From positions 20,181 through 84,180 of the forward strand of contig CALJGL010000001.1 in assembly GCA_938075155.1 (NCBI GenBank): DNA of 64,000 nt. The letters run 5' to 3'. Origin of the DNA: an uncultured bacterium (GTDB taxonomy: Bacteria > Planctomycetota > UBA8108 > UBA1146). The stretch's first letter is position 1; every line of letters begins with the position of its first letter. A model generated the notes under the pieces. The model made no database searches. It was not told where the DNA came from and was given only the letters and a program-made list of their open reading frames with translations. Below are positions 33,177 through 62,600 of this stretch, piece after piece. The position numbers and the translations under genes are program-made.

Positions 33177-34703
33177 TCAAGATCCGAACTGAATGCCCTG
33201 CGCGAGTGGTAGCTCCTTTGAGTAATTTATCGTGCAGGTCTGACGTCTCATGTAAGCCTTCCAGGAATCGGAGCCGGATTCACGTCCTCCTCCGGTGTCC
33301 TTTTCTCCTCCGAAAGCTCCACCGATTTCTGCTCCACTTGTTCCAATATTGACATTGGCAATTCCACAATCGGATCCAACAGCGGAGAGAAACTTCTCTG
33401 ACTCTTGCACATCACGGGTAAAGATGGCACTGGAAAGTCCTTGAGGAACCTCATTATGCCAATCGATCACTTCATCCAGATCGGAATAACGCATCAGATA
33501 GAGGATAGGAGCAAAGGTTTCTTCATGAACTATCTTCATATCATGGCGAGCGCGAACCAATGCGGGCTCAACATAGTGACCACCGGCAGGAACTGATTCA
33601 GTACGGCGATTTCCGCCCAGAATCACTTCCCCTCCTTCTTCCACAACCTGAGTTAATGCCGAAAGCATATTCTCCACGGACTCATCATTGATCAGAGGGC
33701 CCATCAATATGCCATCCTCGAGGGGATCACCGATGGTGACCTGACCGTATGCAGAGATCAGTTGTGCTTCGAGTTCATCGGCGACACTTTCGTGAATAAA
33801 GAGACGACGGGTTGTCGTGCAACGTTGTCCTGATGTCCCACATGCGCCAAAGAGTACCGCACGGGTTGCCAGATCGAGATCGGCATTCTCAGTCACGACG
33901 ATGGCATTGTTTCCTCCCAATTCGAGAAGGCTACGCCCCAATCGCTGTCCGACGACCTCTGCAACTCTTCGTCCCATTCGGCAAGACCCTGTTGCACTGA
34001 TTAATGGAACCCTGCGGTCAGCGATGAGAGCTTCTCCGACGGGATCCGCATCGCCAACGATCAACCCGAAGATCGGCGGAGCTTCCATTTCGTCCAGAAC
34101 TTTTTGTGCAATCTTATGTGTTGCGATAGCGCAAAGAGCCGTCGCTGGAGACGGCTTCCAAATGACAGCATCGCCACAGGCAGCGGCAACCAGTGCATTC
34201 CATGACCAAACCGCAACAGGAAAATTGAAGGCTGAAATACATCCGACGACTCCCAGTGGATGCCATTGTTCATACATTCGGTGCCCAGGGCGTTCAGAGT
34301 GCATTGTCAAACCATAAAGTTGACGAGAGAGGCCCACGGAAAAATCGGCGATGTCGATCATCTCCTGAACTTCGCCAAGCCCCTCGGGGAGTATTTTCCC
34401 CATCTCTGCAGTCACAAGACGACCTAATGGATCTTTATGCTCCCTAAGAGCCTCTCCGATCCTTCGCACCACTTCCCCTCTTAGGGGAGCGGGCCAAGTC
34501 CGCCATTCCTGAAAAGCCGCGTGGGTCGAGGTAACTACTTTTTCGTAATCCTCGAGCCCACCACAGGTCACAGTCCCCAATAAGGACCCATCGATCGGTG
34601 AACGACACTCTAGTTGGGGCCCTTGAGCCTCGAGCCACTGATCAGAATAAGCACCTGAATTGGATTCTCCAATTCCCAGAACGTCCAGAAAAGTACGATC
34701 CAT
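33177..34703 (-). CDS. Aldehyde dehydrogenase, ALDH7 family (piperideine-6-carboxylate/alpha-aminoadipic semialdehyde dehydrogenase-like)
   Basis: The product has ...FQEWR..PAPLRGEVVRRIGEALRE...EVQEMIDIADFSVGLSRQLYG...GGAFGGEKDTGGGRESGSDSWKAYMRRQTCTINYS, the antiquitin-type signature (508 aa). Confidence 0.9.
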   Translation of the reverse strand: MDRTFLDVLGIGESNSGAYSDQWLEAQGPQLECRSPIDGSLLGTVTCGGLEDYEKVVTSTHAAFQEWRTWPAPLRGEVVRRIGEALREHKDPLGRLVTAEMGKILPEGLGEVQEMIDIADFSVGLSRQLYGLTMHSERPGHRMYEQWHPLGVVGCISAFNFPVAVWSWNALVAAACGDAVIWKPSPATALCAIATHKIAQKVLDEMEAPPIFGLIVGDADPVGEALIADRRVPLISATGSCRMGRRVAEVVGQRLGRSLLELGGNNAIVVTENADLDLATRAVLFGACGTSGQRCTTTRRLFIHESVADELEAQLISAYGQVTIGDPLEDGILMGPLINDESVENMLSALTQVVEEGGEVILGGNRRTESVPAGGHYVEPALVRARHDMKIVHEETFAPILYLMRYSDLDEVIDWHNEVPQGLSSAIFTRDVQESEKFLSAVGSDCGIANVNIGTSGAEIGGAFGGEKDTGGGRESGSDSWKAYMRRQTCTINYSKELPLAQGIQFGS

Positions 34704-34843
34704 GTCTCTCGCTCACCTTCAATATTCAACTTGATCTGAATCAGCCTGCGCCAAATGAAACATGGCAAAAAAGCAGGAAGTAGAGGCCAGAACACTCAAC
34801 GGGCTTCAACCCTTCGTCGGGTACCTCTTTATTCGTCAAAGTA

Positions 34844-34903
34844 AACAGCACTGCCGATGTTTAAAGAAAACAGCGCTGCCTGGTGCAAAATAAACAGCCC
34901 GGC
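34844..34903. promoter_or_regulatory. Three direct repeats AAACAGC(A/G)CTGCC, 23-24 bp apart, in the long leader upstream of the dockerin-protein island
   Basis: The copies are AAACAGCACTGCC (34844-34856), AAACAGCGCTGCC (34867-34879) and the degenerate AAACAGCCCGGCG (34891-34903). They lie in an 815-bp AT-richer non-coding interval. Confidence 0.35.
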
Positions 34904-35517
34904 GAAGGAAATCGAGTCGAACCGGTTTGATCTCGCCAACGACATCTCTACAATTTCGTTCTCAGAGGCCCGCATCGGAACTAATTACCGCACTCTAAGT
35001 CCTTCATGAGGATCTGAAAAAAAATATTGAACTTTTCAATCTTTGGGCCTGTTTTTTAATGCTTCGGCTTTTTTAAGCCTTTTTAGCCCTTTCCCAAGGG
35101 GCCCTACACCTATACAAACTGAAGCTCACAATCCCTGATTGATAGGTATGACATTTTTTTATTCTCCCTACTCTTGCGGCCGGAATTTCATGGTTACAAT
35201 CGAGGAGGCTCTGGGCGTGTCCCAAAGTGCGTTTTGAGAAAATAGAACATGAATCCAACCTCTGTTTATTGGTATTGGATTCGAAAAGGGTGCCCATGTA
35301 TTTTTGTGGCGTCCCTGACTCTTCAAACGGGCTTAGACGTGTCAATTTGCTTTTGGACAACTTGATTACTCGGACAATTTAAAATTGAAAAGATCTCTTT
35401 TCTGTATTTAACCGGCCCTGGGCCGTGAGAAATACGGAAGAAACACTTGGTGATAAACCCAAGTTTAATTTGAAACTTTGATAAACCAGCAACTCCAGTC
35501 GAAAGGGAGTTTGACTT

Positions 35518-38500
35518 ATGAAAAATGCAATGTTGTTAGGACTTATTGCCTGCTTAGCAGCGCTCGTTCCTTTCACCTCCATCGAAGCCCAACCCGCAAA
35601 TGATGAATGTGCAACTGCACAAATCGTCGGCGAAGGCTCATTTCCTCTCGACAATACTGGATCGGTCGTAGAAGGCCCAACAGACTGTGACGCCCAAATG
35701 AGCACAGATGTCTGGTTCCTCTACACCGCCACTGATACAGGAAATGCTCTTATCGAGACCTGTAACACTCTTGGAACGATGGACGACACCGTTCTTATCG
35801 TTTACGACGGCGCACTGGGTTGCCCGACGGCAGGCGCAGCCTGCCTCGTCAGCGATGACGACGGTTGCACCGCTCCAAACTTTAGTTCCACAGTACAGCT
35901 GCCTGTCATTTCAGGTGAGTCCTACCTCGTTCAGGTCGGTGGCTGGAATGGCGCAGTGGGATCGAGTGACCTCAGTATTTCAATCCTTGGTGCAGAGATT
36001 TGCGATGACGGCATCGATAACGACGCCGACGGAGCCATCGACTGTGCAGACATCGACTGTGGTGGCGACCCTGTCTGCGGTACCGAAATTTGCGACGACG
36101 GAATCGACAACGATGGCGATGCAGCTGTCGATTGTGCCGACCTCGACTGCATAGGTACTCCCGCCTGTCCTTCAGCAACAAATGACGACTGTGCCAATGC
36201 CACACCCGTCGGAGAAGGTATTTTCCCCGTTGATAATACTATTTCGACACTAGACGGCCCCACCGACGCTGATGCGAACATGGGTACAGACGTTTGGTAC
36301 CTCTACACCGCAAGCGAAACCGGCAATGCTATCATCCAGACTTGTGAGACTCTGGGCACCTTGGATGACACTGTCATCATCGTTTACGACGGTGCTGCAG
36401 GTTGCCCAATTGCTGGATCTCCATTCCTCGGGAGCGATGACGACGGCTGTGCAAACCCAGCCTTCAGTTCTATCGTGAACATTCCCGTCTTTGCTGGAGA
36501 CACCTACCTTGTTCAGGTCGGTGGCTGGAACGGTGCAGTGGGAACAAGTGATCTCGATATTTCGATCGCTGCTCCCGAAATCTGCGACGACGGAATCGAT
36601 AACGACTTCGACGGCACCATCGACTGTGCAGATACAGACTGCATCGGCTTCCCAACATGCGGAGCTGAAGTCTGTGACGACGGTCTTGATAACGACGGCG
36701 ATGGACTGATCGACTGTCTCGACTTGACCGACTGTCTCGGAACCCCTTCCTGTCCTGCGGCCAGTAACGACGAATGCATCACTTCGACAGAAATCGTCAT
36801 CACCGGTTCGGGTATCTACACGGCAGCGATGGACAATAACTCCGCTTCCACGGGACTCGATCCTCTTCCAACTATTCCCTGTAACGTGTTGGGACAGCTG
36901 GCCAACGATATCTGGTACTCCTTTACTCCCGACGTGGACATGAGTGTTGAACTTCACACCTGTGACCCCCTCGGATGGGATACAGATTTGGTTCTCTACG
37001 AAGGCGCAGATTGCAGCCTTCTCACAGAATTAGCTTGTGACGGTGACGGAGTGGGCCTCACGGGCTGCCAAGGATTCTACAGTTACATCAACTTTGTTCC
37101 GGTCTTCGCAGGAGTTGAATACAAAATCCGCTGTGGTTCATGGGGTGCTGGTCTAGGCACTGGACTTCTGACTCTGAATGCCGTGATTCCAGGTGTTGAG
37201 GACTGCCTCAACGGTCTTGACGATGACGTCGACGGACTGACCGACTGCGCAGACCCCGACTGTTTCACTGAGCCCAACTGTGATGAATCTCAAAACTGCT
37301 TCGACGGCATCGACAATGATGTCGATGGTCTGATCGACTGCCTTGACGACGATTGTGCCGCTGATCCGGGTTGTGCCGAGATTTGTGACGACGGCTTAGA
37401 CAATGACGGTGACGGACTGATTGACTGTGCAGACAACACCTGTGCATGCACCGCAGCCTGCCCCATACCTCTGGACGCCGATGAATGCTGTTCGGCACTC
37501 CCAGTCACTGACGGAGCGAATGCTTTCGACACAACTCTGTTAACTGATAGTGGTAACAACATCACCAACTGCGGAGGTGGCTTCGGAGCGATGAGCACCG
37601 ATGGTTGGTTCTCATACACTGCAACCGCAGACGGTAGCCTCTTTTGGGATACATGCGATGCGGCTTCATTCGATACTGACGTAAACGTCTACACCGGATC
37701 TTGCGACGCACTCATCGACGTTGATTGCAACGGAGATGGCGTGGGTCTCACGGGCTGCCAAGCATTCTACTCCTCTGGTGGTTTCCAGGTTCTTTCAGGT
37801 GAGACTTACTTTATCCGTATCGGTGGATTTGGTGCAGGAACTGCAGGATTGGGCACACTGAATATCAGTGTCACCTGTGCAGATCTGATCACCGGCTTTG
37901 CCGGAGCAAACGACTGCTCAACTAACGATGTCACGTTAACTTGGGATCCTGCTGGTTACGACACTTACGACGTTTCCAGAGACGGTGTGGTTCTTGCCAC
38001 CGGTCTTCCCGCTGGCACCGTCAGCTACATTGACAGTTCTGGACTGGCCAATGGCACATACAACTACGAAGTTTCAGGCGTCTGTAACGCAGGTGGTGGC
38101 GATACCCAGCAGACGAGTGTCTCTGTGGCATGCTCCTCAGGTGGAGAAACAGACCTGATCATCAATACTGATCCAGGACTTGGACTGGTTGATAGTACGG
38201 GTGCCCTTGAAGTCGCTCTGACCGCCAACGGCATCGCATTCCTAACCGTTCCGGATGCACCTGCAACCCTTCTCGGTAGCGTCATCGGTTCATACGAAAG
38301 AGTCTGGGTCATGACTGGTACCTTCGGCTCCGACGGCCGTTTGACGAGTGCCGACAGTGATGCACTGGGTTCCTGGATTGAAGCTGGAATCGGCGTCTAC
38401 CTCGAAGGTGGAGACCACTGGGGATTCGCAGTAAATGCCGGTAACTTTGATAACTACGACGGCGTCATTGGCGCTGCAGATGGAGATGACACCTTCGTCA

Positions 38501-39105
38501 GCATGAACGGGTTAGATACTCTGATCGGAACCGACTGGAGTGATCTCCTCGGCGTGCCCTACACTCAGGATCAGGCGGGTAATGACTGGACTGACCAGTT
38601 GACCGTTGGCCCCGAGTTGGGTGGACCCGATGTTGGCGCGATCTGGCAAGAGGCCGCTGGACTTTACACCACGGGTGCTCTTAGCCTGAACCAAGACTTG
38701 GGAGGTAGCCCCATTGGAGTTGCCCTTATCCAGTCTTGGGAATTTGGTGGCTTCGGTGGAGATCAGACCGATCTCGCTGCACGCATGCTCGCTGCATTGG
38801 GCGGCAACAGCGGTCCTGTCGGTCCAAACTTCGGCCGTGGTGACTGTAATGCCGACGGCGGATTTAACATTGCGGACGCCATCTTTGTGTTGGCTGCACT
38901 CTTCAGTGGAGGACCGTCTGGGACTTGTCTCGACGCCTGTGATTCCAATGACGATGGCGGAGTCAACATTGCGGACGCGATCTTCTCACTGGCAGCCTTG
39001 TTCAGTGGTGGTCCTCCTCCGAGTGCTCCTGCGCCCGGCACCTGTGGTCTAGATGCCACCGATACCGACGCACTCGACTGTGTGTCATTCCCACCATGCC
39101 CGTAA
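35518..39105 (+). CDS. Giant secreted protein 1 (1195 aa): four Cys-rich beta-sandwich modules, eight Asp/Cys-rich repeats, a shared central module and a C-terminal double dockerin-like module
   Basis: The gene has the RBS AGGGAG and a signal peptide ([24 protein letters not shown]). The repeated module has the pattern NDECA...DVWFLYTA...TC..DT...Y.G..GC....C..DDDGC...Y.VQVGGW. The [22 protein letters not shown] repeats occur eight times. The C-terminus reads [26 protein letters not shown]...[25 protein letters not shown]...DCVSFPPCP. Confidence 0.85.
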
Positions 39106-39153
39106 TCACAGGCATTAGGGTTTAAGCGGCTCTGCTTTCAGAGTCACTTTGAA

Positions 39154-39188
39154 GGGATCTCTCCAAATGGAGAGATCCCTTTTTTTTT
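39154..39188 (+). terminator. Rho-independent terminator
   Basis: The hairpin GGGATCTCTCC-aaat-GGAGAGATCCC is followed by T9, 50 nt after the stop of protein 1. Confidence 0.7.
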
Positions 39189-39446
39189 GCATACGTGGGC
39201 CCATTTCTCACCCACATTGAACTGCCCAAAAGCCTAAAGTTTTAAGTTCCCAGATATACGACACATCTGACTCAACTCTCTTTCATGACTAAACTGTCAT
39301 GCAAGTCACATAGGCCTCGCATGTATACTTCGTAATATATATGTTCTATTTGTATAGTTATTCACCTCAGGTCGAAGTGGTCCTTTATGCCCACATTCTT
39401 CGCCTTCGAAACATTATCAATCTTGAGAACTAGGCCTGGAATTATC

Positions 39447-41498
39447 ATGCTTTCAAACTCGTCGAGTTTAATAACGTCCCAGATTCTCCATCGGTCGATA
39501 AACCTACTGATCATTTCCGTGGCCTTATTGATCAGTTCTCGTTGTCAATCTCAGGTGATCCCTACAGGACTCCTCGAAGAAACTCCCCCTCGATCCGCGA
39601 ACACCTCATCCGGAACGGGTCCGCTGTCTCCTTCGGATCTCGTCGCGGGTCCTTTCTCCCTCTCCGGGAGCAGTGCCTACGGCATCTGTTACATGCCTGG
39701 AAATAACCCTTGGGGACTTCCGATCCTTGTGGTGGCTGAACTCTTCAGTGCTGAAAGCTGGGTCTACAATGCGCTGGATTTGACACCACTCTCGTCCATT
39801 CCAAATCCCCCATCTGGAATTTCTGTAACAGGAGTCACGACAGATGGGACTTATTTGTATTGGGGAGTGATCAATCCACCCGGTCCCAATGAACTCTGGA
39901 GATCCAATCCGGACGGAAGCTCTGCGTTTCTTCTCGGAGAGGCAGACATTCAAGGTGGTGGATTTATTGGAGGACTTTGCTGGGATGGGAATCAAGGCAT
40001 TTGGGCTAACGACATCACCGCGGATCAATATGACCTTCTCTCCATCAGTGACGGTACATATTTAGGCGTATCTGTTGACCACCCAGATGGAGGTGGAATG
40101 GGGAACGGCCTTGCCTTCAGAGCCGACTGTCAACGTCTCGCCATACCTCATGGGCATGACTTCTCAGGGAGAGTAACGACGATTTCGAGTACCTCGACAC
40201 AAAGTTCAATCCCCCTAGGCCCCGTGGACATCAGTGAGAACGGTTTCTTCATCAATGGAATTGAAAGCTCTCGCCCCGCAGTCGATCCGATGGCTGATCC
40301 GTTTGGGATCTTCACATATTGGGTCGTCGATAATTCCAGCAACACCATATCAGTCGTAGAGGGGCACGACGGATGCCCAACTCTCATCGACCCCATCCAA
40401 GAGTTTGAATGCAGTGCTGACAGCGATGGTGTCATCCAAGTGACATGGAACAGATCTTCTCAAATCGAGAATATGGAGATCCGTCTCGATGGAATCCTAA
40501 TGGCGACCGTTCCAGCGAGTCAGGGGAACTGGACGGGTGTGTCACCGACACTCCCAGACGTCCTACGGATTCAAATCCAGGGTTTCAATGGCAATAATTG
40601 GACCCCCCCCACCCACTGTGACTTGGTTCTTCCAGGATGTAATCCCTCTGTAATGGAAGTCGCCCACGTCACCAATAGCGAAGAGTTGGCTTTGGGAACT
40701 CCATTTTGTGGAGACTTGAATGGACACTTGGAACAGTCCTATTGGAGATCGTTTTCTCCATGCCTCTCTCCATTTTCACTCTCTGACGGTTTGATTCTGG
40801 AATCTATTCGATTGGGCATTGAGCAATCTGACCCAGCGCCGGGTATGCAAACCCAACCCCTCGTCCTCAAGATCTATCAGGACCCCGACGGTGGCGACGT
40901 GGGTCCAATATCCACTTTGGTTCTCCTCCATGAACAAGTATTCCTAGCTCCGGCTCTCTCTATGAATCATTTATGCGTCACGTTGGATGCTCCCCTAACA
41001 ATTCCGTGTGATCTCGACGTCGTTGTAGAGATTTTTCTTCCCGACGGTAGTCTCGATGGACATGTTTTTGTTCTGGGTTCAAATTCAAATGGTGAATCTC
41101 ATGAAACATGGCTTTCAGCACCGGGATGCTCCATCGACTCACCCACCCCTCTCTCTAACTTGGGATACATCAATCGTCACATCGTGATGCAGTTCAGAGG
41201 ATCACTTCCGGATTCAAACTTCGCTCGGGGTGATATCAATTCGGACAACTCCATCAATTTGGTCGATGCTGTTTTATTATTGGAAGCTCTATTCACTCCA
41301 GGCGCAGAACCCTTGAACTGTCAAGATGCCGCGGATGGAAATGACGACGAAGGCGTGAATTTGGCGGATGCCATTTTTATTCTCAGCTACCTTTTCATTC
41401 CTGGGTCACCTGAGATTCCCGATCCGACAACCTCATGTGGCCCTGATCCCACCTCTCCAACTCTTCTGGATTGTCAAATTCATCCAAATTGTCCCTGA
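39447..41498 (+). CDS. Giant secreted protein 2 (~683 aa from the internal start; the ORF track start is 39387): Fn3-like/beta-rich region and a C-terminal double dockerin-like module
   Basis: The signal-like segment is MLSNSSSLITSQILHRSINLLIISVALLISS. The C-terminus reads ARGDINSDNSINLVDAVLLLEALF...NDDEGVNLADAIFILSYLF...LLDCQIHPNCP. Confidence 0.75.
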   Translation: MLSNSSSLITSQILHRSINLLIISVALLISSRCQSQVIPTGLLEETPPRSANTSSGTGPLSPSDLVAGPFSLSGSSAYGICYMPGNNPWGLPILVVAELFSAESWVYNALDLTPLSSIPNPPSGISVTGVTTDGTYLYWGVINPPGPNELWRSNPDGSSAFLLGEADIQGGGFIGGLCWDGNQGIWANDITADQYDLLSISDGTYLGVSVDHPDGGGMGNGLAFRADCQRLAIPHGHDFSGRVTTISSTSTQSSIPLGPVDISENGFFINGIESSRPAVDPMADPFGIFTYWVVDNSSNTISVVEGHDGCPTLIDPIQEFECSADSDGVIQVTWNRSSQIENMEIRLDGILMATVPASQGNWTGVSPTLPDVLRIQIQGFNGNNWTPPTHCDLVLPGCNPSVMEVAHVTNSEELALGTPFCGDLNGHLEQSYWRSFSPCLSPFSLSDGLILESIRLGIEQSDPAPGMQTQPLVLKIYQDPDGGDVGPISTLVLLHEQVFLAPALSMNHLCVTLDAPLTIPCDLDVVVEIFLPDGSLDGHVFVLGSNSNGESHETWLSAPGCSIDSPTPLSNLGYINRHIVMQFRGSLPDSNFARGDINSDNSINLVDAVLLLEALFTPGAEPLNCQDAADGNDDEGVNLADAIFILSYLFIPGSPEIPDPTTSCGPDPTSPTLLDCQIHPNCP

Positions 41499-41828
41499 TA
41501 TGACCATTCTGGAGTCGTGACAGGTTAATCAGGTGCTTGACCCCGGACGTGGGACAGGTAAATTTGGGATATTGGGCGAATGAGTATTTTTTTCATTTAT
41601 TTGAGGCTGTTGATGGTCTCGCAGTTATGAGTTTCGTATTGCAGAGGGCAGAACCTCTACATACGAAAAGATGGATACTCTTAGCAATAATTTGAATTTT
41701 AGTTTCCAGCATCACCCAGAGATGTTGTGAACACTTATCCTGCCATCAGATGGCATCTCGAAGTAATCAACATATTAACCGGCCAATCCGGCGTGGATTT
41801 GCCATTAAACCAGGAAGGGTTTTCTAAT

Positions 41829-44800
41829 ATGAGACACCTACCAATTCTTGCAGCACTCTGCGTGCTACTCAGTGGAGGCGTAGTTCATGCTCAGGGAGCT
41901 GACGAATGCGCTAACGCACAATCCATCAATCTCGGAGCTCCGGGAACGGTCACTGTTGTCGTGGACAACACCGCCGCGACAAACAGTGCTGAACCATTGA
42001 GCGCTGGCGGTACGTGCCCAAACACAGCTATCGGAACCACCGAGGCTGATGTTTGGTACAGTTGGACCGCACCAAATACTGGCCTTTTGGATGTCAGTAC
42101 CTGCGTTAATCCAGGTCTTCTCGACACTGATATTTATCTTTACGATGCCAGTGGCGGTTGTGCTGCTCTGATCGAAGTCGGCTGTAATGGTGACGGCGTT
42201 GATGCTAACGGCGTAGCATGCGTGAATTTCGGTTCAAACATTGTAGGTGCACCTGTTTTTGCTGGCGTGACTTACTTTTTAAGAGTCGGTGGCTGGGATG
42301 CTGGATCTCTCGGAACGACCGACATGGATGTCACATTCACTCTGGGTACGGTCGCTCCAGATAACCTGACCTGTAACTATGACGCCTTGACAAACGAAGC
42401 CGCTCTCACTTGGGATAACCTAGATCAATACGACACTCTTGATTACTACCTCAATGGTACTCTTACAGGACAACTCGACGGCACTGCTGGAGCAGCTACC
42501 GGAATCGTGAGTGGTCTGGTACCCGGCTCCAACGAGATCTGCCTTGAAGGTACCATTGGCGGAATCGCCAGTACTCAAACATGCTGCATCGTCTACATTG
42601 CCGAGCCATGTCCTCCGACTGTTGCCGCAACCATGTCTCCGATTGCCACGGTCATTCCTCTTATTGGAACCGTCTCCTGTAATGCAGCCGGACTTCACGC
42701 CGACAACTCATACCTGCGTTCCTTTGATTTGGTCAATGGATACGGAGTCAGCGACGAGATTACAGTCGAATGCGTAACGACAGCTGTCGACGTTTCCACT
42801 CCAGGTGCTGCAGGTACTCAGCCTGTCCGAGTTCGCCTGATTGTTGACGTCAACGGTGGTGGTCCACAGAACTTCACCTATCTTGCGGGAACCAATGTCG
42901 GACAAACTCCGGATATTGGAAACAACTCCATGATCATGGTCTACGAAGAAGAGTTCCAGCTTCCTGCTATCCAGGGACTTGAAAACTTCAACTTCGTTCT
43001 CGGTACCGGTGTCGTTGACCCGGATGCCCTCGGCGCCAACAATCCGACACTTCAGTGCATGACCGCATACGGACCCAGTGCAACTCTCGCAGTTGAGATT
43101 TTCACTCCCGACGGACAAACTGACGGACACTCATACTTCATGGGTGCTTCTGACACTGCTGTCGAAAATGGAGTCAGTTACATTGTTTCATTGGCTTGCG
43201 GCCTGAACAGCCCCAGCCCTCTCTCCGGAATTGGTTTTCCCAACAACCGTTACATCATGGACGTCGGCTACTCCGTCGCAGTTGCAGGAACCTGTGGCAG
43301 TGCTGGTGGGGTTTCCAACCTTCAGTGTAACCAAACTGTCGGAGAACAGACCTGGAACCTGACATGGGACGACGCCGGTGGTGCCACCTCATGGATCGTT
43401 GAAGTCGACGGCAATGTGGAGGCCATCCTTCCGAGCACCGACTTGGCGTTCACGACTGGACCCCAGTTCGAGTACCAAGATGTTGACGTTTTGATCAGCT
43501 CCTGGACTGGACCTGGTGGAACCGGAACATTGATCAACTCTGCGGGTTGTACTCTTCAAACCGCCCCAGCCAACAACTGGCCAGAGGGTGCAAGCATCAC
43601 TGCTTCAGGTACTTTCCAGCAGGAGATTGCCACACCGTACACAACGACTATTGGTCAGCCGCTCGATATCGCTGTTTGTGACCCGGGAACTGGTGTCGTC
43701 CAGATCAACAACGACATCTTCTTGCGCTACACCGCTACCAACGACGGCGATGTTTTAGTCAGTACCTGTAACCCAAATACGGCCATCAACGGTGATGACA
43801 CCATGCTTGCCGTCTACACATATGACGCCGCTCTTCTCGATGATCCGAATCTCGCGATCGCCTGTAATGACGATGTCAATGTAGGTGCAAACCCGACTAA
43901 TAACCCCGCCTGTAACGTTTTCCTCGCTGAGGCGATCTTTGCAGCGACAACAGGAACCGAGTACCTCATTCGTCTCGGTACCTTCAACGCAGCAGGTACA
44001 GGAGCACTCGAGTACACGATTAATGATTGTGTCCCTGCGACCAACATCTCAGGAGCTTCAGAGTGCACCACGGGAGACGTGACCTTGAACTGGACACCGA
44101 ACCCGAACGCTGCGTCTCAGGAAATCCTGCGTGACGGCGTTTCTCTCGCAGTAATAGGCGCAACAGAAACCAGTTACATCGATTTGGGTGTGGCTGATGG
44201 CAACTACCTTTACGAGGTAGTGACCGATTGTGGTGGCGGCCCCAACCCCATTGGCGTCGCAATCTCTGTGCTGACCTACGCGGGTCAGACTGACCTTATC
44301 TTCGCGGTTGAGGGACTTCTGAACGCTGGAGACCCCGGACTGGTAGACAGTGGAGCACTTCTTGAAACCGCTCTTGCGGGTGCCGGAAGAACCGTCGGCT
44401 TGATCCGAGGTAGCTGGCTTGATTACCCCTGTGCCAGTGACGCAGGAGTTTCCAACGTCTGGATTCTGGCAGGAACCGTACCTAACGATTACCGCATCTC
44501 TGTCGCTGAGGGTGACGAACTCGCAATACTTGGAGAAGCCGGTAAGGGCGTTTACTTCGAAGGTGGAGATCACTTCGGATTCATTCACGCAGCCAGCCTG
44601 TTTGACTCTCGTGATGGCGTGGACGATGGTACATACGATACTGGTGACGGAGATGACACCTTCACCGCCATGGACGGAGCAGATTCCGGACAGGGTCTCG
44701 ATATGAGTGCCAATGCTGATGTGCCTTACACTCAGGATCAGGCTGACAACGACTGGACAGACCAGTTGACGGTGGCCAATGCTGATACAGGACTGTCTGG

Positions 44801-45281
44801 CGCTGGTTCACTCTGGCTCTCTGACGATGCCTTGGTCGATGCCGCGGGTGCTCCGATTCCTCCGTACATTACTGCTATTGCCGGTACTGCAAACGTGGGT
44901 GGAAACACCGTCGTTCAGTCCTGGGAAATCGGTGGATACGGTGGCGATCAAACGGCTCTCGCTCTTGCATACGCAGAGTTCATCGAGGGTGGTGGATCAA
45001 CCGGACCAATCTTTAAGCGTGGAGATGCAAACCAAGATGGTGGATTCAATATTGCTGACGAGGTCTTCCTATTGGCAGCCCTCTTCTCGGGTGGAACTCC
45101 CTGTGAATGCGACGACAGTTGTGACCAAAATGACGACGGTGGAGTAAATATTGCCGACGCGATCTATGGTCTTGCTGCGCTCTTCTCGGGTGGCCCCGCT
45201 CCTTCAGACCCTGGACCGAGTGTCTGCGGCGAGGATCCCACGGCTGACTCACTCACTTGTGACACCTACAACGGCTGTTAA
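41829..45281 (+). CDS. Giant secreted protein 3 (~1150 aa; the ORF track start is 41727): two Cys-rich beta-sandwich modules, the shared central module and a C-terminal double dockerin-like module
   Basis: The likely start is MRHLPILAALCVLLSGGVVHAQGADECANAQ..., which is a signal peptide. The central module (QTDLIFAVEGLL...GGDHFGF...[18 protein letters not shown]...QSWEIGGYGGDQT) is shared with proteins 1 and 4. The C-terminus reads [27 protein letters not shown]...[22 protein letters not shown]...LTCDTYNGC. Confidence 0.85.
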   Translation: MRHLPILAALCVLLSGGVVHAQGADECANAQSINLGAPGTVTVVVDNTAATNSAEPLSAGGTCPNTAIGTTEADVWYSWTAPNTGLLDVSTCVNPGLLDTDIYLYDASGGCAALIEVGCNGDGVDANGVACVNFGSNIVGAPVFAGVTYFLRVGGWDAGSLGTTDMDVTFTLGTVAPDNLTCNYDALTNEAALTWDNLDQYDTLDYYLNGTLTGQLDGTAGAATGIVSGLVPGSNEICLEGTIGGIASTQTCCIVYIAEPCPPTVAATMSPIATVIPLIGTVSCNAAGLHADNSYLRSFDLVNGYGVSDEITVECVTTAVDVSTPGAAGTQPVRVRLIVDVNGGGPQNFTYLAGTNVGQTPDIGNNSMIMVYEEEFQLPAIQGLENFNFVLGTGVVDPDALGANNPTLQCMTAYGPSATLAVEIFTPDGQTDGHSYFMGASDTAVENGVSYIVSLACGLNSPSPLSGIGFPNNRYIMDVGYSVAVAGTCGSAGGVSNLQCNQTVGEQTWNLTWDDAGGATSWIVEVDGNVEAILPSTDLAFTTGPQFEYQDVDVLISSWTGPGGTGTLINSAGCTLQTAPANNWPEGASITASGTFQQEIATPYTTTIGQPLDIAVCDPGTGVVQINNDIFLRYTATNDGDVLVSTCNPNTAINGDDTMLAVYTYDAALLDDPNLAIACNDDVNVGANPTNNPACNVFLAEAIFAATTGTEYLIRLGTFNAAGTGALEYTINDCVPATNISGASECTTGDVTLNWTPNPNAASQEILRDGVSLAVIGATETSYIDLGVADGNYLYEVVTDCGGGPNPIGVAISVLTYAGQTDLIFAVEGLLNAGDPGLVDSGALLETALAGAGRTVGLIRGSWLDYPCASDAGVSNVWILAGTVPNDYRISVAEGDELAILGEAGKGVYFEGGDHFGFIHAASLFDSRDGVDDGTYDTGDGDDTFTAMDGADSGQGLDMSANADVPYTQDQADNDWTDQLTVANADTGLSGAGSLWLSDDALVDAAGAPIPPYITAIAGTANVGGNTVVQSWEIGGYGGDQTALALAYAEFIEGGGSTGPIFKRGDANQDGGFNIADEVFLLAALFSGGTPCECDDSCDQNDDGGVNIADAIYGLAALFSGGPAPSDPGPSVCGEDPTADSLTCDTYNGC

Positions 45282-45630: not shown

Positions 45631-48600
45631 ATGCTGATGAGATGGATACTCACAGGACTGATTCTGGTGCTCATTAACTTTTCCGGAACTGCCGATGCTC
45701 AGGTAACGATCAATGAGATTCGTACTGATCAATCTGGCTCGGATACCGATGAGTATTTCGAATTAGCAGGTCCCCCTGCAACCAGCCTTGCTGCATTGAC
45801 GTACATCGTCATTGGCGATGGTTCCACCGCCAGCGGAACTATTGAAGCCGTGGTCAGTCTTGCCGCAGGGAACATCTCCTTTTCGGGTCTGTACGTAGTT
45901 GCAGAAGATACCTTTACTCTGGGCGTCGCAGATATGACTGCAAACCTCGGATTCGAAAATAGTGACAACGTGACTCATCTTTTGGTGGAAGGCTTCTCTG
46001 GCGCACTTGCCGATGACCTCGACACCGACGATGACGGAGTTCTGGATGCCACTCCATGGACTAACATTGTCGACTGCATCTCCCTCCTCGAATTTCCGAT
46101 CGACCCTCTGACAGGACAGCCCACTGAAGGAGAGCTCGTATATTGTTCAAATACTGTGGGTCCAGATGGAACCTTTGTTCCCGGACACTCAGGACGTTGC
46201 CCCGATGGAACGGGTGATTGGGAGATTCTCGACTTTGGTGATCTGGCCTCAGATACACCTGGAAACCCCAACACCTGTCCGGAAATTTGTGATAACTCCG
46301 TAGATGACGATGGAGACGGATTCATCGACTGCCTAGACGACGAATGCTCAGGAGATCCTGCATGTGCCCCCGCACCGCTCAATGACGACTGTGCCAGTGC
46401 CACCAATATCGGAGAAGGTTCCTTCCTTGTATCCACATTTGGTTCCACGACAGATGGCCCTACCAATTGTGGCGGCAGTACTCTGAATGATGTTTGGTAT
46501 CTCTATACGGCAACGTGCAGTGGACTCGTGACCTTGACCACTTGCGGAACGTCAACTTTTAATCCGCAAATGGCGATCTATTCGGGCTCCTCAACTTGTC
46601 CTCCAGATTTCGCAAACGTATTGGCTTGTGATTCCGGAAGCTGTGCAGGATCCGGAGACCCAGAGATTCTCTTCGATGCAATTTCTGGTGAAACATACTT
46701 AGTTCAAATCGGTGGATTCAATGGTGAAAGAGGTGAACTCACCTTAACCGTCAGTTGCCCACCCGACGATTGCCACCAAGCACCCAATCCAAATTTGGAA
46801 TTTCAGGGATTCATTGGAGTCTCTGGTTCGAGTGCACCCGCAGCTCCGATTGCATATGTCGGAGACCCAGCAACAAACTTCACCTTTGATTCAATAAACA
46901 TCGCTGGTGCAGGAACTATTGAAGATCTTGATGTTGGTGTAAATATCACTCACGGGTTCATTGGAAATCTTGATATCGATTTCGTATCGCCCGCCAATAC
47001 TCAGATCAGACTTTACCAAAATGAAAACAACTCTGACGATAACATGTCCTTGATCTTCGATGACGAGGGAGCAACATACGGGAGCGATACCACTTTCAGT
47101 GGCATCCGTATGCAACCTTATGCCTTGTCTCAAGGATCCGGATCATTGGCTGACTTCGACGGCGAGCCCGCTGCTGGTAACTGGACGATTCTTGTAGCAG
47201 ACGGATTTGCAAGTACTGCAGGAGGCACCCTCGATGACTGGTCCCTCTTCATTTCCCAGCCAGAAACCATCACCGGTACCCAAGACTTCGTGATCAACAT
47301 CGATCCCAACTCCCTTGAAGGAGTCGACGATCTGGATGTGGACATGAATCTTTCCCACCCGGACCTGACTCAGGTCGAAATCGATCTCCTGTCTCCCGGA
47401 GGAACCAGTATCCGACTTCATGACAATGGAGCAGGTACAGATCTAATCGGACGCTTTGACGACGCTACGGGTCTCAACGACGGTTACGGTTCATTGATCC
47501 CATCTGGCCCGGGAACACTGGCAGACTTCGATGGCGAAATCATCGGCGGCGACTGGACCCTGACAATTGCAGCGGGAACCTCGACCGGTACATTCTCTAA
47601 CTGGGCGCTACAGGTATGCCCTGCAAACTGCCCTGCTCCCAGTGACCTTGTCATTGAGAGTGACTGCGCAGGAGATGCCGTGAACTTGTCGTGGATCAAC
47701 AACACGGCCTACTCAAATATTTCGATTGAACGCGATGGAGCCATCGTCGCCACTCTTGCCGGCGCAGACACAACGTACTCTGACGTCTCACCTCCTGAAG
47801 GATTCCACGAATACGTAGTGAGAGGTTCTTGCACATCAGGTGCAGGAATCGCTTCAGGATTCGTCGATCACTTCTCGTATAATGGTGAAGATACATTGGT
47901 CTTTGCTCTCGAAGGGCTCTTGGACGACGGCGATACTGGATCGAATGATTCAGGTGCTGCTATTCAACAAAGCCTGATCGCCTCTGGCGTCAATTCGAAG
48001 CTGATCAGGAAACAGATTGACGAATTTGCATGCCTCGACCCCGCTCAGATTTCTCAGGTATGGGTTCTTTGTGGAACTTTCCCCACGAACTTCCGTCTCA
48101 ATAGCGCTGAAGCGGACCTATTGGCATCGCTTGCAGAAGCAGGAGCTTCGGTCTACTTCGAGAGTTCTGATCATTGGAGCTTCAACCACCCGATTTCGAC
48201 GTTCGATGATCGAGATGGTGTTGCAGAACCTTACGAGCAAGACGACAACGACTCTCTCGTCGGCTTAGATGGTGCAGATAGTGGTGTCGGACTGGATATG
48301 TCTGCAAACCAGAACGTGCCTTACTCGCAAGATAATCAATCCACGACCGGAAACCCCAATGACTTCACGAACATCCTCATTCCAGCCACAGCAGAACTCG
48401 CAGGAGGAACCGCAGGTTTGGCATGGAGATTCGACGACGCCATCGGTGTCACTTTTGGAGTCACGACCGCCTACATTCCGGGAACCGGTGGAAGAGTGAT
48501 CTGCTCCTCATTCGAATTGGGGGGATACGGTGGAAACCTCGATAGCGTCGTTTCCGCTTACCATGACTTCCTTGGAGATAGTGTCGTCACTCCTGGAACT

Positions 48601-48873
48601 GGATTCCAGAGAGGTGACTGCAACTCTGATGGTGGATTCAACATTGCGGACGCCATCTTCCTTCTCGGAAATCTGTTCTCTGGTGGCCCAGAAGGCACCT
48701 GTACTGACGCTTGCGATGCGAACGACGACGGCAGTGTCAACATTGCAGATGCCATCGCTGCCCTAGGAAGCCTGTTCAGTGGAGCGGGACCACTTCCTGA
48801 CCCGTTTGGCGATTGTGGAGAAGACCCCACTTCAGACAGCATCGAATGCGCTGAGTACAACAGCTGCCCCTGA
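45631..48873 (+). CDS. Giant secreted protein 4 (~1080 aa; the ORF track start is 45595): lamin-tail domain, one Cys-rich beta-sandwich module, two proprotein-convertase P-like domains, the shared central module and a C-terminal double dockerin-like module
   Basis: The RBS GGAGG precedes MLMRWILTGLILVLINFSGTADA. The region QVTINEIRTDQSGSDTDEYFELAG... is LTD-like. Two segments of the form ...GxLxDxDVxxNITHGFIGNLDIDFVSPANTQIRL...GNWTILVADGFASTAGGTLDDWSLFI are P-domain-like. The C-terminus reads [27 protein letters not shown]...NDDGSVNIADAIAALGSLFSG...IECAEYNSCP. Confidence 0.85.
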   Translation: MLMRWILTGLILVLINFSGTADAQVTINEIRTDQSGSDTDEYFELAGPPATSLAALTYIVIGDGSTASGTIEAVVSLAAGNISFSGLYVVAEDTFTLGVADMTANLGFENSDNVTHLLVEGFSGALADDLDTDDDGVLDATPWTNIVDCISLLEFPIDPLTGQPTEGELVYCSNTVGPDGTFVPGHSGRCPDGTGDWEILDFGDLASDTPGNPNTCPEICDNSVDDDGDGFIDCLDDECSGDPACAPAPLNDDCASATNIGEGSFLVSTFGSTTDGPTNCGGSTLNDVWYLYTATCSGLVTLTTCGTSTFNPQMAIYSGSSTCPPDFANVLACDSGSCAGSGDPEILFDAISGETYLVQIGGFNGERGELTLTVSCPPDDCHQAPNPNLEFQGFIGVSGSSAPAAPIAYVGDPATNFTFDSINIAGAGTIEDLDVGVNITHGFIGNLDIDFVSPANTQIRLYQNENNSDDNMSLIFDDEGATYGSDTTFSGIRMQPYALSQGSGSLADFDGEPAAGNWTILVADGFASTAGGTLDDWSLFISQPETITGTQDFVINIDPNSLEGVDDLDVDMNLSHPDLTQVEIDLLSPGGTSIRLHDNGAGTDLIGRFDDATGLNDGYGSLIPSGPGTLADFDGEIIGGDWTLTIAAGTSTGTFSNWALQVCPANCPAPSDLVIESDCAGDAVNLSWINNTAYSNISIERDGAIVATLAGADTTYSDVSPPEGFHEYVVRGSCTSGAGIASGFVDHFSYNGEDTLVFALEGLLDDGDTGSNDSGAAIQQSLIASGVNSKLIRKQIDEFACLDPAQISQVWVLCGTFPTNFRLNSAEADLLASLAEAGASVYFESSDHWSFNHPISTFDDRDGVAEPYEQDDNDSLVGLDGADSGVGLDMSANQNVPYSQDNQSTTGNPNDFTNILIPATAELAGGTAGLAWRFDDAIGVTFGVTTAYIPGTGGRVICSSFELGGYGGNLDSVVSAYHDFLGDSVVTPGTGFQRGDCNSDGGFNIADAIFLLGNLFSGGPEGTCTDACDANDDGSVNIADAIAALGSLFSGAGPLPDPFGDCGEDPTSDSIECAEYNSCP

Positions 48874-59663: not shown

Positions 59664-62600
59664 TTAGGGGCAAGAGTTATACTCTGCACACTCCAGATTA
59701 GTACCACTGGGATCAGAACCACAGACTCCATTGGAAGGAACTGGGATATCGGGCCCATTGGTAAACAGATAGCTCAACAAGTAAACGGCATCCGCAATGT
59801 TACTCAGCTCATCGTCATTGGTATCGGTTGCGTCATCACAGGACACGACCCCACCTAAGAAAAGTGCGTTGAGTAGCGAGACGGCATCTGCCAAGTTTAT
59901 CAAAGCATCGTCATTGATGTCCGCACGAATAAACCCACCTACACTCGGATTCAATGTGATGGTTCCATTCACTCCTGATACACCAGCAGACTGTGAACTC
60001 ACAACTACAACGAGTTCAACAGGCGGAACACCAAGAGTATCGGAGAATTCGACCTGAGTACTCAATGGTGCGGTATTACCTGCTAAACCAGCAGGAACTG
60101 TATCGTATTCGACAGACAACAGGTCTGTTGCAGTAGCAAACGAAATCACGTCCGCACCTACGAATGTATAAACACAGCCCACTGTGAGGCCATCCGCAAA
60201 ACTATTCACATCAAAGAAGTCAGGTCCCGTGTTTCCATTCAAGGCCGTCAGTACCGGAGCGGCGATCGCACCTGTCGCGGACAAGATTGCAGGATCATGG
60301 ACAATACCTAATGAAAATGCTTGAGTCTCATTGGGATAACCTAGGTTCCCTGGATCTTCCTCAACCGAAACGGAAACTTCAAAGGAGCTGCTACCCGTCG
60401 CTTCTGGGTAATCCACTGCTTGGTCAGCAGCCGTCATGATAAAGCCTGAAGGATCAAGACTGATGGTTCCTGAGTTTCCACCGGCAATAACAGCCGTACC
60501 TGACGAAGTCGACACAATCAACTCTACTGGAGGAGAGCCCAAAGATTCGGAAAAGCTAAGCGTAGAGGAAACGGTGCCCGTGGCACTCGCCAGTGATCCT
60601 GGAAGTGAGGTGTAACTCACAGAAATGATTTCTGTATCCGACACCATTTGCAATGTTTCGACGAGAGTGAAGTCGTACACCGATCCGACCGTGAGTCCGT
60701 CGGAGTAGATGGTGGTATCAAAGAAAGCAGGACCCGCTCCACCGTCCATGGCAGCAAGATCTCCGAGAGCCTGTGCAGAAACTGCTTCAAACAATGCCCC
60801 ATCATGAGCTAATCCGAAGGAGAACCCGGCTGTGTCTGTTGGGAATCCCGGATTGTTCACTTCTTCCTGGAGAGAGACAACACTTTCAAAGCTTGCTCCA
60901 CCGGCACTGTAGGAACCGTTGACATTCCCGGCCGTGAACATGAATCCAATCTGCTGAATCACGTCAATACTGCAAGTACTCGTGGGTGCCGCTTGGGATC
61001 CTGCACAAAATGGCTGAAGGGTGTAAACACGACTGCCGACTTGAGCGGAGGAATCCGTGTAACTCGTCGCTGTTCCCGGCAGGGTATCTACCAGTCCGCC
61101 ATCCCGAAGCACTCCAATAGAGTCATAGTCTTCTCCATTGTTCCATGAAAGAAGAATTGAGTTCCCACTGACCTGACTACAAGAAAAAGCATTCGCCGAT
61201 ACACAGATACAATCCGGATCAGAAATACAATCGGGATCTTCGCAATCGGTCAGCCCATCCAAATCATCATCTGTTCCGTTGTTGCAGTTCTCAGGAGGAG
61301 GCGGAGGAGCCTGGGTGCTGATTTCGAGAGTACCGGATCCAATCGCCGTATTATTCCACCCGCCCAAGCGGATCAATACTGTGGATCCAGCACTGAGATT
61401 GGTGGTCACGGAACTGGTCAAGCCACCGCATCCTGCACCATCACCATTACAGGCGATGGGAGTGAGAGCTCCACAAGTTCCAGAATAAACCAAGATATCG
61501 GAATCAAAGGTGACCGTATCACACGTTGAGATGACGTACTCTCCGGAGGAAGGCACAGTGAACTCGAACCAAACATCGTTGATAAAATCACCGAGGAATG
61601 TTCCTCCACAGGTCGAGTCATCTATCGCGTCCGCTCCGGTCGTCGCGGCTGTGTTATCCACTGCATTCGATCCCAGAATAGCGACTTGAGCAGTAGAACA
61701 TTCGTCACCCGGAATAGCAGGGACACATGCTGGGTCGCTAGAACAATCGAGGTCCTCGCAATCAGCAAGACCGTCTCCATCGTCATCGACACCATTGCTG
61801 CAATTCTCCACAGGTCCACCGGATGTCAAATCAAGGATCAGTGCGCCTGGCCCCGGTAATCCATTTCCGGGATGAGGTGTTCCCCATGCCCCGATACGGA
61901 ACCAATATGTTTCGCCGGCAGTCACATCCAGAGTCAACTCTGACCAATATTGCTGACATGTTGGAGAAGTGTTTTGATTCACGTCTCCATTACAACCCAG
62001 ATTAATCAAAGAACCACAGGACCCTGTGTAGGCCACAAGATCCGTGTCAAAACTTCCGGGCGAACAAGTCGAGACAAACAGGGAACCCGATTGATCAGGA
62101 ACATAGGAGTACCAGATATCACCCAGCATATCTCCGAGTCCTTGACCACAGGTCGCGGCATCCGGAATAGGATCTGTTCCTGTTGTTGCAGCAGTGCTAT
62201 CAAAAGGATTGGTCCCCAAGATCGCCACTTCAGCCGAGACACATTCATCTCCAGTCGCGGGTGGAACACAAGCGGGGTTGGTGCTGCAATCAATGTCTTC
62301 ACAGTCCGCTAACCCGTCCCCGTCATCGTCCACACCATTGGTGCAATTTTCGACACCGCCACCGCCACTAGGAACAAACAACACTTCCATGTCACCAGAA
62401 CCGGTGACTCCCTCACTCCATGAAGAGACTCGAATCAGATAAGTGGTTCCACCCGTGACAGGAATATTCTCAATACGTGAGGTGAAAGTAGAACAGCCTC
62501 CTGTGTCACCGTTACAAGCAAGTAGATTGAGTGCTCCACAATTACCAGTGAACACTTGAAGGTCAGTGTCCCAGCTCGCAATACCACAAGTACTCACCGA

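Follow-up and report, generated by a model that had tools for sequence, protein, structure and literature searches.

A conserved acidic module with a predicted class I glutamine amidotransferase-like fold precedes the dockerin-like tail of secreted proteins in marine Planctomycetota

A module shared by three of four tandem genes

The window analysed here, a 64-kb stretch of DNA from an uncultured member of the Planctomycetota, contains four tandem open reading frames (ORFs) on the + strand, p1 (35518-39105), p2 (39387-41498), p3 (41727-45281) and p4 (45595-48873), each of which ends in a pair of dockerin-like repeats followed by a Cys-rich tail. The original prediction that p1, p3 and p4 share a module of about 230-240 aa directly upstream of this dockerin-like pair is confirmed, with boundaries that lie only a few bases away from those first proposed. 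A six-frame hmmsearch of the window with the family profile detects exactly three copies, all on the + strand: 38143..38829 in p1 (aa 876-1104; E 7.6e-83), 44283..45011 in p3 (aa 853-1095) and 47884..48603 in p4 (aa 764-1003; E 6e-97). The same search finds no module in p2, which carries the tail. In pairwise BLASTP with compositional adjustment, the modules of p1 and p3 are 41% identical (E 2e-40), those of p1 and p4 33% (E 4e-25) and those of p3 and p4 43% (E 1e-56). Of the three copies, that of p4 has diverged furthest. The long sequence blocks originally thought to be common to all copies (QSWE(F/I)GG(F/Y)GGDQT, EGGDH, DDT(F/S) and a further block of 18 letters) are literally present in p1 and p3 only, p4 having the variants VPYSQDNQSTTGNPNDFTNILIP, SSFELGGYGGNLD, ESSDH and DNDSL, and the EGLL stretch is missing from p1. 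What the three copies do retain are the residues that are invariant across the family. A dN/dS of 0.11-0.28, obtained by comparison with orthologous genes of a MAG with 94% identity, indicates purifying selection on the gene.

The arrangement of domains around the module follows a strict rule, in which an Ig-like domain is followed by the module and then by the dockerin-like tail. The Ig/fn3-like domain comprises about 90 aa (C..DVTLTW..RDG..SY.D..G.Y.Y.V..C) and is located on the + strand at 37879..38142 in p1, where it adjoins the module, at about 44028-44282 in p3 and at about 47629-47883 in p4. It also occurs between both modules of proteins that contain two of them, an arrangement found in nine representative proteins. 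Among the 49 family proteins, fn3 matches are obtained in two, all partner domains are beta-sandwiches of binding types, and no glycoside-hydrolase domain is found. Apart from the module, these proteins contain beta-sandwich domains only. Module-Ig-module-tail proteins exist as well, and the minimal family members (P0003 and P0020) consist of a signal peptide, the module(s) and the tail with no other domain.

A new sequence family within a known fold

At 50% identity, the family defined by the module comprises about 540 clusters, 543 being matched at E<=1e-3 and 177 at E<=1e-30, and these come almost exclusively from MAGs of marine Planctomycetota. Conservation was assessed in an alignment of 58 representatives sharing at most 80% identity, with the p3 copy as the reference for residue numbering in the conservation table. 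This alignment contains seven invariant columns and about 20 near-invariant ones. E93, D111, G112, E215, G217 and G218 are invariant, and E10, D96, D122, D125, Y149, Q151, D157, D160, W178 and S213 are conserved in at least 90% of the representatives. The conserved residues are mainly acidic and aromatic and include the motif S213-W-E215-x-G-G. The module is strongly acidic (14.2% D+E, 2.2% K+R) and rich in Gly (14.6%), Ala (11.7%) and Asp (10.7%). Such a bias could suggest that the conserved blocks are artefacts of Gly/Asp-rich low-complexity sequence and that there is no domain at all. This explanation is refuted by the composition-adjusted BLASTP E values, and the number of clusters in the family, the 58-member alignment, a confidently predicted fold (see below) and the purifying selection leave it next to no probability.

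No Pfam family matches the 58 members or the family consensus at E<=10, scans of the three window copies yield no relevant Pfam match either, no NCBIfam model matches the module, and profile searches against PDB sequences return no true match. Ornithine carbamoyltransferase and MsrA/B, which appear in the latter searches at E 0.65-3.2, are chance matches, and the weak hits to MarB, GlgA, DUF7274 and NfeD in the Pfam and NCBIfam scans are noise. A second sequence search with the 58-member profile adds nothing new, and no description of the module was found in the literature on dockerins in Planctomycetota. The module is thus a real domain that had escaped annotation, and the sequence family it forms is new and, in essence, limited to marine Planctomycetota. 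The initial view that it belongs to no known family holds at the level of sequence; structurally, it falls into a known fold superfamily, that of the class I glutamine amidotransferase (GATase)-like domains. It is best read as a new family within a known fold rather than as a member of any characterised family.

This placement comes from structure prediction. AlphaFold2 (AF2) models the p3 module with a pLDDT of 86.8 and a pTM of 0.89, and the p1 module together with its tail with a pLDDT of 86, and the models show regular beta-alpha-beta elements. The top Foldseek matches of these two independent models in the PDB are class I GATase-like domains only (probability 1.0, TM about 0.45-0.6), although remote ones, with a TM of about 0.5 and 8-15% identity. 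For p1, the best matches are the IFT52 GIFT domain (5fmr), followed by lin1909, OST48 and GATases; for p3, they include the GH42 middle domain 6lvw, Op5Man5, the ThuA-like protein 4pxy, GATases, OST48 and IFT52. In these models the module is an autonomous alpha/beta domain of about 230 aa with a class I GATase-like (flavodoxin-like) fold and a C-terminal beta extension. Its best matches group it with the branches of this fold that have no catalytic triad, i.e., GIFT, GH42 domain B and ThuA-like proteins.

Among these branches, the GIFT domain (IFT52 N-terminal, OST48/Wbp1 luminal, GldG; PF09822 ABC_transp_aux, PF03345) shares with the module a class I GATase-like fold devoid of the triad. The p1 model matches 5fmr_A (E 2.4e-5, probability 1.0, TMt 0.55) and 8b6l_N and 6s7t_G (E about 4e-4), and OST48 is matched by both models. 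At the sequence level, when a module profile of 187 sequences is compared by hhalign with a shallow and almost wholly vertebrate IFT52 profile (Neff 1.9), a local match over 40 columns is obtained (P 0.0089, probability 4.5%; reversed control P 0.29). This match aligns module 54-96 with IFT52 50-92 over beta3-helix-beta4-elbow (W-[IV]-x-x-G-[TP]...T.aE..L...G..v.v..E-G-G-[DE]). The single sequence of human OST48 (checked against 8pn9) gives nothing by hhalign, and PF09822 and PF03345 do not match the window copies, the 58 members or the consensus. Unlike GIFT domains, the module has motifs of its own in its C-terminal half (YxQD, NDWTDQ, SWEFGG), is extremely acidic, is obligatorily followed by the dockerin-like tail and occurs in marine Planctomycetota only. 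The middle domain of GH42 beta-galactosidases (PF08532) and its Op5Man5 equivalent have the same triad-less fold in carbohydrate-active proteins, and 6lvw is the top Foldseek match of the p3 model (E 1.5e-4; also 7bob, 4ucf and 4uni, TMq about 0.5). However, none of the 49 family proteins combines the module with a GH42/GH5 TIM-barrel catalytic domain, and none of the 58 members matches PF08532. The fold of ThuA-like proteins (PF06283; 4pxy, 4jqs, 4e5v), which are common in Planctomycetota and likewise lack the triad, is also matched (4pxy, E 1.9e-3, TMq 0.52), but there is no PF06283 match among the 58 members, and the conserved residues and domain context differ.

Conserved residues at the predicted positions of the fold's active site

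The predicted core strands of the module at residues 4-8, 58-62, 89-93 and 209-212 are directly followed by E10, G64-P67, E93/D96 and S213-E215, respectively. In class I GATases, the oxyanion loop, nucleophile elbow and His-Glu pair are located after these strands, so that the conserved residues of the module would correspond topologically to the active site of these enzymes. At the elbow the module has Y-x-E-[GSA]-[GA]-D, and its last core strand is followed by S-W-E. Among the 58 representatives, no Cys is conserved at the elbow (C50, present in 46/58, lies outside it) and no His is conserved at all. The earlier suggestion that blocks with invariant Asp, His and Glu could form a catalytic or metal site thus fails for His, since even H97 is found in only 28/58, while there are invariant Asp and Glu residues that may contribute to such a site. 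Because neither the elbow Cys nor a His is conserved, the module has no catalytic triad, and from its residues it cannot carry out amidotransferase or Cys/Ser-His-Glu chemistry.

It is accordingly almost inconceivable that the module represents a canonical class I GATase or one of the related Cys/Ser-His-Glu hydrolases (C26, C56, S51, S66). In its core fold and in the order of its secondary structure elements it does agree with class I GATases, many subunits of which (PabA, TrpG, GuaA N-terminal) match the two models with Foldseek probabilities of 0.95-1.0. However, the absent elbow Cys and conserved His refute this explanation, no family of the Pfam GATase clan CL0014 matches the 58 members or the consensus at E<=10, and hhalign with the single sequence of E. 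coli PabA (checked against 8rp1) gives a probability below 1%. Moreover, amidotransferases are cytoplasmic and work with synthase partners, whereas the module occurs in secreted proteins that lack such a partner.

Strand positions and fold topology suggest that the conserved residues would instead cluster into a single pocket at the C-terminal edge of the central parallel sheet. This putative pocket, strongly acidic and lined with aromatic residues, would be made of E10, G64-T65-x-P67, Y91-x-E93-x-x-D96 and S213-W214-E215-x-G-G, and would do the work of the module. It would be flanked by the Asp-rich loops D111-G, D122-G-D-D125, Y149-x-Q-D and D157-W-T-D160, which probably bind Ca2+, and for many of the conserved Asp and Gly residues the role may be no more than that of a structural Ca2+ site.

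The dockerin-like tail

The tail that follows the module lies on the + strand at 38830..39102 in p1, 45012..45278 in p3 and 48604..48870 in p4, and is also present without the module in p2 (41220..41495, + strand). In p1 it consists of two dockerin-like Ca-loop/helix repeats and a CGxDxT..C..CP end. A tail HMM recognises it in p2, p3 and p4, and alignments, which also support the p3 assignment, reveal two D.N.DG..N[IL].D loops in every tail. Matches of the window tails to Pfam Dockerin_1 (PF00404) reach 16.3-21.4 bits (16.3 in p1, 18.6 in p4), below the cut-off of 22.9; for the best relatives, the E values are 5e-6 to 9e-7. The tail HMM also detects this tail (59667..59930, - strand) in a thermolysin-type M4 metallopeptidase without the module, which is encoded by ORF 59664-63851 on the - strand and has Pfam Peptidase_M4/M4_C and GBD_T9SS_assoc domains.

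In the family as a whole, the tail is carried by 113 of the 123 module ORFs, the remaining ten being cut by contig ends or frameshifts, and the distance from the end of the module to the C-terminus is 85-95 aa. Every complete module protein thus ends in the tail, but the converse does not hold: 53 other ORFs, including those of the M4 peptidase and of GSDH, cupredoxin, FG-GAP, PKD and cohesin proteins, carry the tail without the module. Canonical cohesin domains occur in the same lineage and are candidate dockerin receptors. Module and tail of p1 are joined by a flexible Gly/Pro linker with a pLDDT below 50, and the pTM is 0.70 when the p1 tail is included versus 0.89 for the p3 module alone. 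In cellulosomal enzymes, binding modules are followed by the catalytic domain and then by the dockerin. The resemblance of the module proteins to these systems is one of architecture only, i.e., a payload domain and, behind it at the C-terminus, two dockerin-type Ca-binding repeats, with cohesin proteins in the lineage. They differ from them in the sub-threshold dockerin match of the window tails, the extra Cys-rich CGxDPT..C..CP end, the planctomycetal host and a payload that is no known enzyme.

Binding head, enzyme or platform

The account that we tentatively prefer, with somewhat less than even confidence, is that the triad-less GATase-like module is the head domain of secreted proteins, binding a ligand and perhaps also catalysing a reaction, with the dockerin-like tail as the means of display. 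The dockerin-like pair and Cys-rich end would be a display or anchoring unit used throughout the lineage and linked flexibly to the module, the pocket would bind its ligand, for which a glycan or a cationic compound is our best guess, and the N-terminal galactose-binding-like and P-domain beta-sandwiches would add avidity. The presence of the tail on ORFs with other cargo, the fixed module-tail spacing, the minimal proteins, the binding-type partners, the flexible linker and the purifying selection support this account, as does the proposal that GIFT domains are sugar binders (PMC7226087). The original proposal of a functional core delivered by the tail remains plausible for related reasons, namely that the module is the sole non-beta-sandwich domain, that proteins with only a signal peptide, module(s) and tail exist, and that the tail is also carried by the M4 peptidase. 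On the other side, the two invariant Glu residues beside CBM-like domains would fit a true enzyme equally well, and the platform roles of the IFT52 GIFT domain and GH42 domain B favour a structural function.

A true enzyme, i.e., a new carboxylate-based hydrolase on a GATase-like scaffold (cleaving, e.g., glycans, esters or peptides), is unlikely. The catalytic acid/base and nucleophile would then be provided by E93/D96, located at the nucleophile elbow, and by E215 in the place of the triad Glu, with the beta-sandwiches as CBMs and the tail as anchor. Invariant carboxylates at canonical active-site positions accompanied by conserved aromatics, the existence of proteins made of module and tail alone, the lack of any other non-beta-sandwich domain, a real M4 peptidase in the window with the same tail and GBD_T9SS_assoc domains, and the cellulosomal order of binding modules, domain and dockerin all argue for it. 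Yet GIFT and GH42 domain B, the nearest structural relatives, are not known as catalytic, searches against Pfam and PDB sequences gave no similarity to an enzyme family, and many of the conserved Asp residues resemble Ca2+ loops. The more specific proposal of a new enzyme family in which a Glu/Asp/Glu site replaces Cys-His-Glu, displayed on the surface of uncultured marine Planctomycetota by a cohesin-dockerin-like system, is less probable still. We likewise regard as unlikely that the module is a non-enzymatic platform that forms with the tail an extended anchoring and assembly cassette, serving in oligomerisation as GH42 domain B does, in docking a cell-surface partner or in recognising the dockerin-like tail of another molecule. 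Pfam describes GH42 domain B (PF08532) as a trimerisation domain. Two of the top structural neighbours, IFT52 GIFT and OST48, function as interaction platforms, and the IFT52 GIFT domain and GH42 domain B, which trimerises, serve in protein-protein contacts or oligomerisation (PMC9753473). The fixed module-tail distance in every complete protein and the proteins with two modules also fit a platform. However, P0003 and P0020 would be anchors without cargo, which is odd, the tail functions on 53 ORFs without the module, and the lineage already has canonical cohesins as candidate receptors. Moreover, AF2 gives no fixed packing of module and tail, as seen in the linker pLDDT and the drop in pTM, and the conserved residues would map to canonical pocket positions rather than to the whole surface.

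Marine Planctomycetota are abundant and mostly uncultured degraders of algal polymers, and much of their secreted proteome is unannotated. The several hundred clusters of the module family are covered by no curated model, and their putative conserved acidic pocket sits on a scaffold that usually hosts hydrolytic chemistry. Were the module to bind or cleave a marine polymer, large surface proteins now called 'hypothetical' would gain a function as an entire class, and cohesin-dockerin-type display outside Firmicutes would gain support; were it catalytic, the ocean would hold a class of extracellular enzymes, so far hidden, that process glycans or polymers. Even as a scaffold only, it would provide a useful new domain definition at the DUF level and add one more offshoot without the triad to the GATase/GIFT fold.

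The gene neighbourhoods give no clue to function apart from conserved synteny, which involves Aldedh, MurJ and an epimerase; FG-GAP, TPR and HTTM are found near P0003.

A Tail on Four Tandem ORFs and a Module Shared by Three

Four tandem ORFs occupy the + strand within 35.5–48.9 kb of the window, namely p1 (35518-39105, 1195 aa), p2 (39387-41498, 703 aa), p3 (41727-45281, 1184 aa) and p4 (45595-48873, 1092 aa). All four encode an N-terminal Sec-type signal peptide and a C-terminal tail of ~90 residues, in which two dockerin-like D.N.DG..N[IL]AD loop-helix repeats are followed by a CGxDPT..C..CP end. Directly before this tail, p1, p3 and p4 contain a common module of ~230-240 aa (38143-38829, 44283-45011 and 47884-48603, respectively, + strand); p2 has the tail and no module. 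Because the segment is found at these three positions and its copies match one another in pairwise BLASTP with compositional adjustment (E 2e-40, 4e-25 and 1e-56; 33-43% identity), the original prediction of a shared module preceding the tail in three paralogs is confirmed. The long motif strings proposed with it are literal in p1 and p3 but not in p4, a more divergent copy that reads ESSDH, DNDSL, VPYSQDNQ...NDFTNIL and SSFELGGYGGN at these places. Upstream, p1 (35518-38142) has seven ‘acidic double-disulfide repeats’ (NCBIfam NF033662, E 4.5e-48) alternating with GBD_T9SS_assoc-like domains and p4 (45595-47628) contains two proprotein-convertase P-domains (E 1.6e-23), with no catalytic domain detected in either region.

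Family Size and Distribution

Among 5.8 billion proteins, a word-indexed search returned only 10 relatives, all of them metagenomic hypothetical proteins with the tail. When 1.84 billion cluster representatives were searched exhaustively with an HMM, 543 proteins scored E<=1e-3, of which 263 reached E<=1e-10 and 177 reached E<=1e-30. Scanning GTDB species genomes identified 70 loci, nearly all in MAGs of marine Planctomycetota, where one genome often has several of them. A contig of MAG BS30m-G49, which was recovered from the oxic part of the Black Sea water column (PMC8067304), matches the window at 93.9% identity over 20.6 kb. The dN/dS of the three modules against their BS30m-G49 orthologs is 0.11-0.28, equal to that of the remainder of the proteins, and an alignment of 58 representatives (<=80% identity) has a mean column identity of 39%. 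The module is a real domain family, and the reading of its conserved blocks as a low-complexity artefact is rejected.

The gene order aldehyde dehydrogenase-p1-p2-p3-p4-MurJ (window 33177-50704) is kept in ~18 Planctomycetota MAG loci (L003-L022, L034, L040, L073) at 53-97% protein identity, in some cases (e.g., L009) with an extra p1-like copy. Planctomycetota-type clusters with module proteins are also present in MAGs labelled Bacillota (L018 and L047, QNYK01) and Proteobacteria (L024, JAFMMO01), the contigs being probably mis-binned or mislabelled. At three loci (L017 3-1533, L039 3371-6332 and L012 5672-8969) the module gene is fragmented, with the N-terminal 78 profile positions and the C-terminal part in different frames and the tail in an ORF of its own, owing to frameshifts that stem from either assembly errors or pseudogenisation.

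Coupling of Module and Tail

Six-frame translations of all loci, searched with HMMs for module and tail, show the tail on 113 of the 123 module ORFs; the other 10 run off contig ends or are frameshifted. The distance from module end to C-terminus is 85-95 residues in about 108 of 117 cases, and of the 148 newly retrieved representatives (P0011-P0158) nearly all have the dockerin/Cys tail at their end, 110 with the strict pattern and most others, on inspection, with variant tails. The tail also occurs without the module, in 53 ORFs that include p2 and a thermolysin-type M4 metallopeptidase of the window (59664-63851, - strand, 1395 aa) with GBD_T9SS_assoc domains and the dockerin-like/CGxDP..C..CP end; the tail is therefore a C-terminal unit of general use in this organism. 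Tail-only proteins outside the window carry GSDH, cupredoxin, FG-GAP, PKD/Ig and cohesin domains.

Other Pfam domains in 49 full-length family proteins are of beta-sandwich binding types only, i.e., GBD_T9SS_assoc (21), P_proprotein (7), fn3, PPC and cohesin. The protein P0003 is reduced to signal, module and tail, and P0020 consists of signal, module, Ig-like domain, module and tail. Nine representatives (P0011-P0020, P0071) have two modules with an Ig/fn3-like domain of ~95 aa between them, a domain that also precedes each window copy, and the repeating unit is therefore an Ig-like domain plus a module. In an AF2 model of the p1 module with its tail, the linker has pLDDT <50 and pTM falls to 0.70; module and tail are therefore independent domains on a flexible tether.

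Several small proteins (~340-420 aa; L036 11435-12460 (-), L042 19102-20301 (-), L043 12618-13874 (-) and 18735-19946 (+), and L048 13021-14190 (-)) lack the module and have two complete tail units ~160 residues apart, being possible adaptors or cross-linkers. Pfam Cohesin occurs in one module protein out of 49 and in two tail-only proteins out of 33, a hint that marine Planctomycetota have an assembly system of the cohesin-dockerin type.

Predicted Fold

The module has no match in Pfam (three copies; 58 members at E<=10; family consensus) or NCBIfam, and comparing profiles with all PDB sequences produced chance matches only; the original assignment to no known family is thus correct at the sequence level. 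The AF2 model of the p3 module (13-sequence alignment; pLDDT 86.8, pTM 0.89) has a regular beta-alpha-beta core, a beta-rich C-terminal half and a final helix. Both this model and the independent p1 model (32-sequence alignment; pLDDT 86) lead in Foldseek searches against the PDB to the class I glutamine-amidotransferase (GATase)-like superfamily. Best matches for p3 are the GH42 beta-galactosidase middle domain (6lvw, E 1.5e-4), Op5Man5, the PabA/TrpG/GuaA GATases, lin1909, ThuA-like 4pxy, OST48 and IFT52, and for p1 the IFT52 GIFT domain (5fmr, E 2.4e-5, TMt 0.55), lin1909, OST48 and GATases. With TM ~0.45-0.6 and 8-15% identity, the superfamily placement of the predicted structures is firm and kinship to any single family remote. 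Profile comparison by hhalign, with PabA, IFT52 and OST48 sequences checked against the PDB beforehand, found nothing for PabA and OST48, and for an IFT52 profile a non-significant 40-column local match (P 0.009, probability 4.5%; reversed control P 0.29) spanning beta3-helix-beta4-elbow (W-[IV]-x-x-G-[TP]...T.aE..L...G..v.v..E-G-G-[DE]), which is suggestive of a GIFT-like relationship.

Conserved Residues and Putative Pocket

Seven residues are invariant among the 58 representatives (p3-module numbering), namely G64, E93, D111, G112, E215, G217 and G218. Conservation is >=90% for E10, S23, W60, T65, P67, G87, Y91, D96, F100, D122, D125, G132, Y149, Q151, D157, D160, W178 and S213. The invariant His foreseen within Asp/His/Glu blocks is not borne out: His97, of the GGDH block, is present in 28 of 58 members, and neither a conserved His nor a conserved Cys at the elbow exists among them. 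The module therefore has neither the Cys-His-Glu triad of amidotransferases nor the triads, built on Cys or Ser, of peptidase families C26, C56, S51 and S66, and a canonical amidotransferase reading is rejected.

Directly after predicted core strands 4-8, 58-62, 89-93 and 209-212 stand E10, G64-T65-x-P67, E93/D96 and S213-W214-E215, at what we take to be the positions of the substrate loop, oxyanion loop, nucleophile elbow and His-x-Glu in class I GATases. Because these four groups follow the strands where class I GATases place their site, they may line one acidic and aromatic pocket at the canonical location. The module is strongly acidic overall (D+E 14.2%, K+R 2.2%), and its Asp/Gly-rich loops (DG, DGDD, NDWTDQ) look like Ca2+ sites. 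Module position 50 (p3, near window 44430) is a Cys in 46 of 58 modules but not in p1; this Cys could form a disulfide either with position 211 (Cys in 24 of 58) or with a Cys a short way upstream, within the Ig-like domain.

Possible Function

In this lineage the tail would serve generally for display or anchoring, with the module as one of its payloads; within its own proteins the module is the sole candidate functional head. Our preferred but tentative reading is that the module is a triad-less GATase/GIFT-like ligand-binding head with a putative acidic, aromatic pocket, the ligand being likely a glycan or a cation, with Ca2+ probably involved. A less likely alternative is a true carboxylate-based hydrolase, favoured by the two invariant Glu residues and by the CBM-like domains that accompany the module. 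As likely as the hydrolase is a structural or oligomerisation platform, which the known roles of IFT52 GIFT and GH42 domain B favour; module-only proteins, which have no cargo, and the occurrence of the tail independently of the module speak against it.

The module is a new, uncurated domain family within a known fold superfamily. In an uncultured marine clade, it is distinctive in its conserved site and in being strictly coupled to a dockerin-like tail. To a specialist it is useful rather than startling, and would be more interesting if the putative pocket were indeed catalytic.

Other Genes of the Window

The left end of the window contains rpoC and rpoB (1795-9928, - strand), and downstream of the p1-p4 cluster lie genes for a MurJ flippase, a UDP-GlcNAc 2-epimerase, a LamG+metallophosphatase protein and an S15 X-Pro dipeptidyl peptidase, all of them ordinary housekeeping or secreted-enzyme genes.
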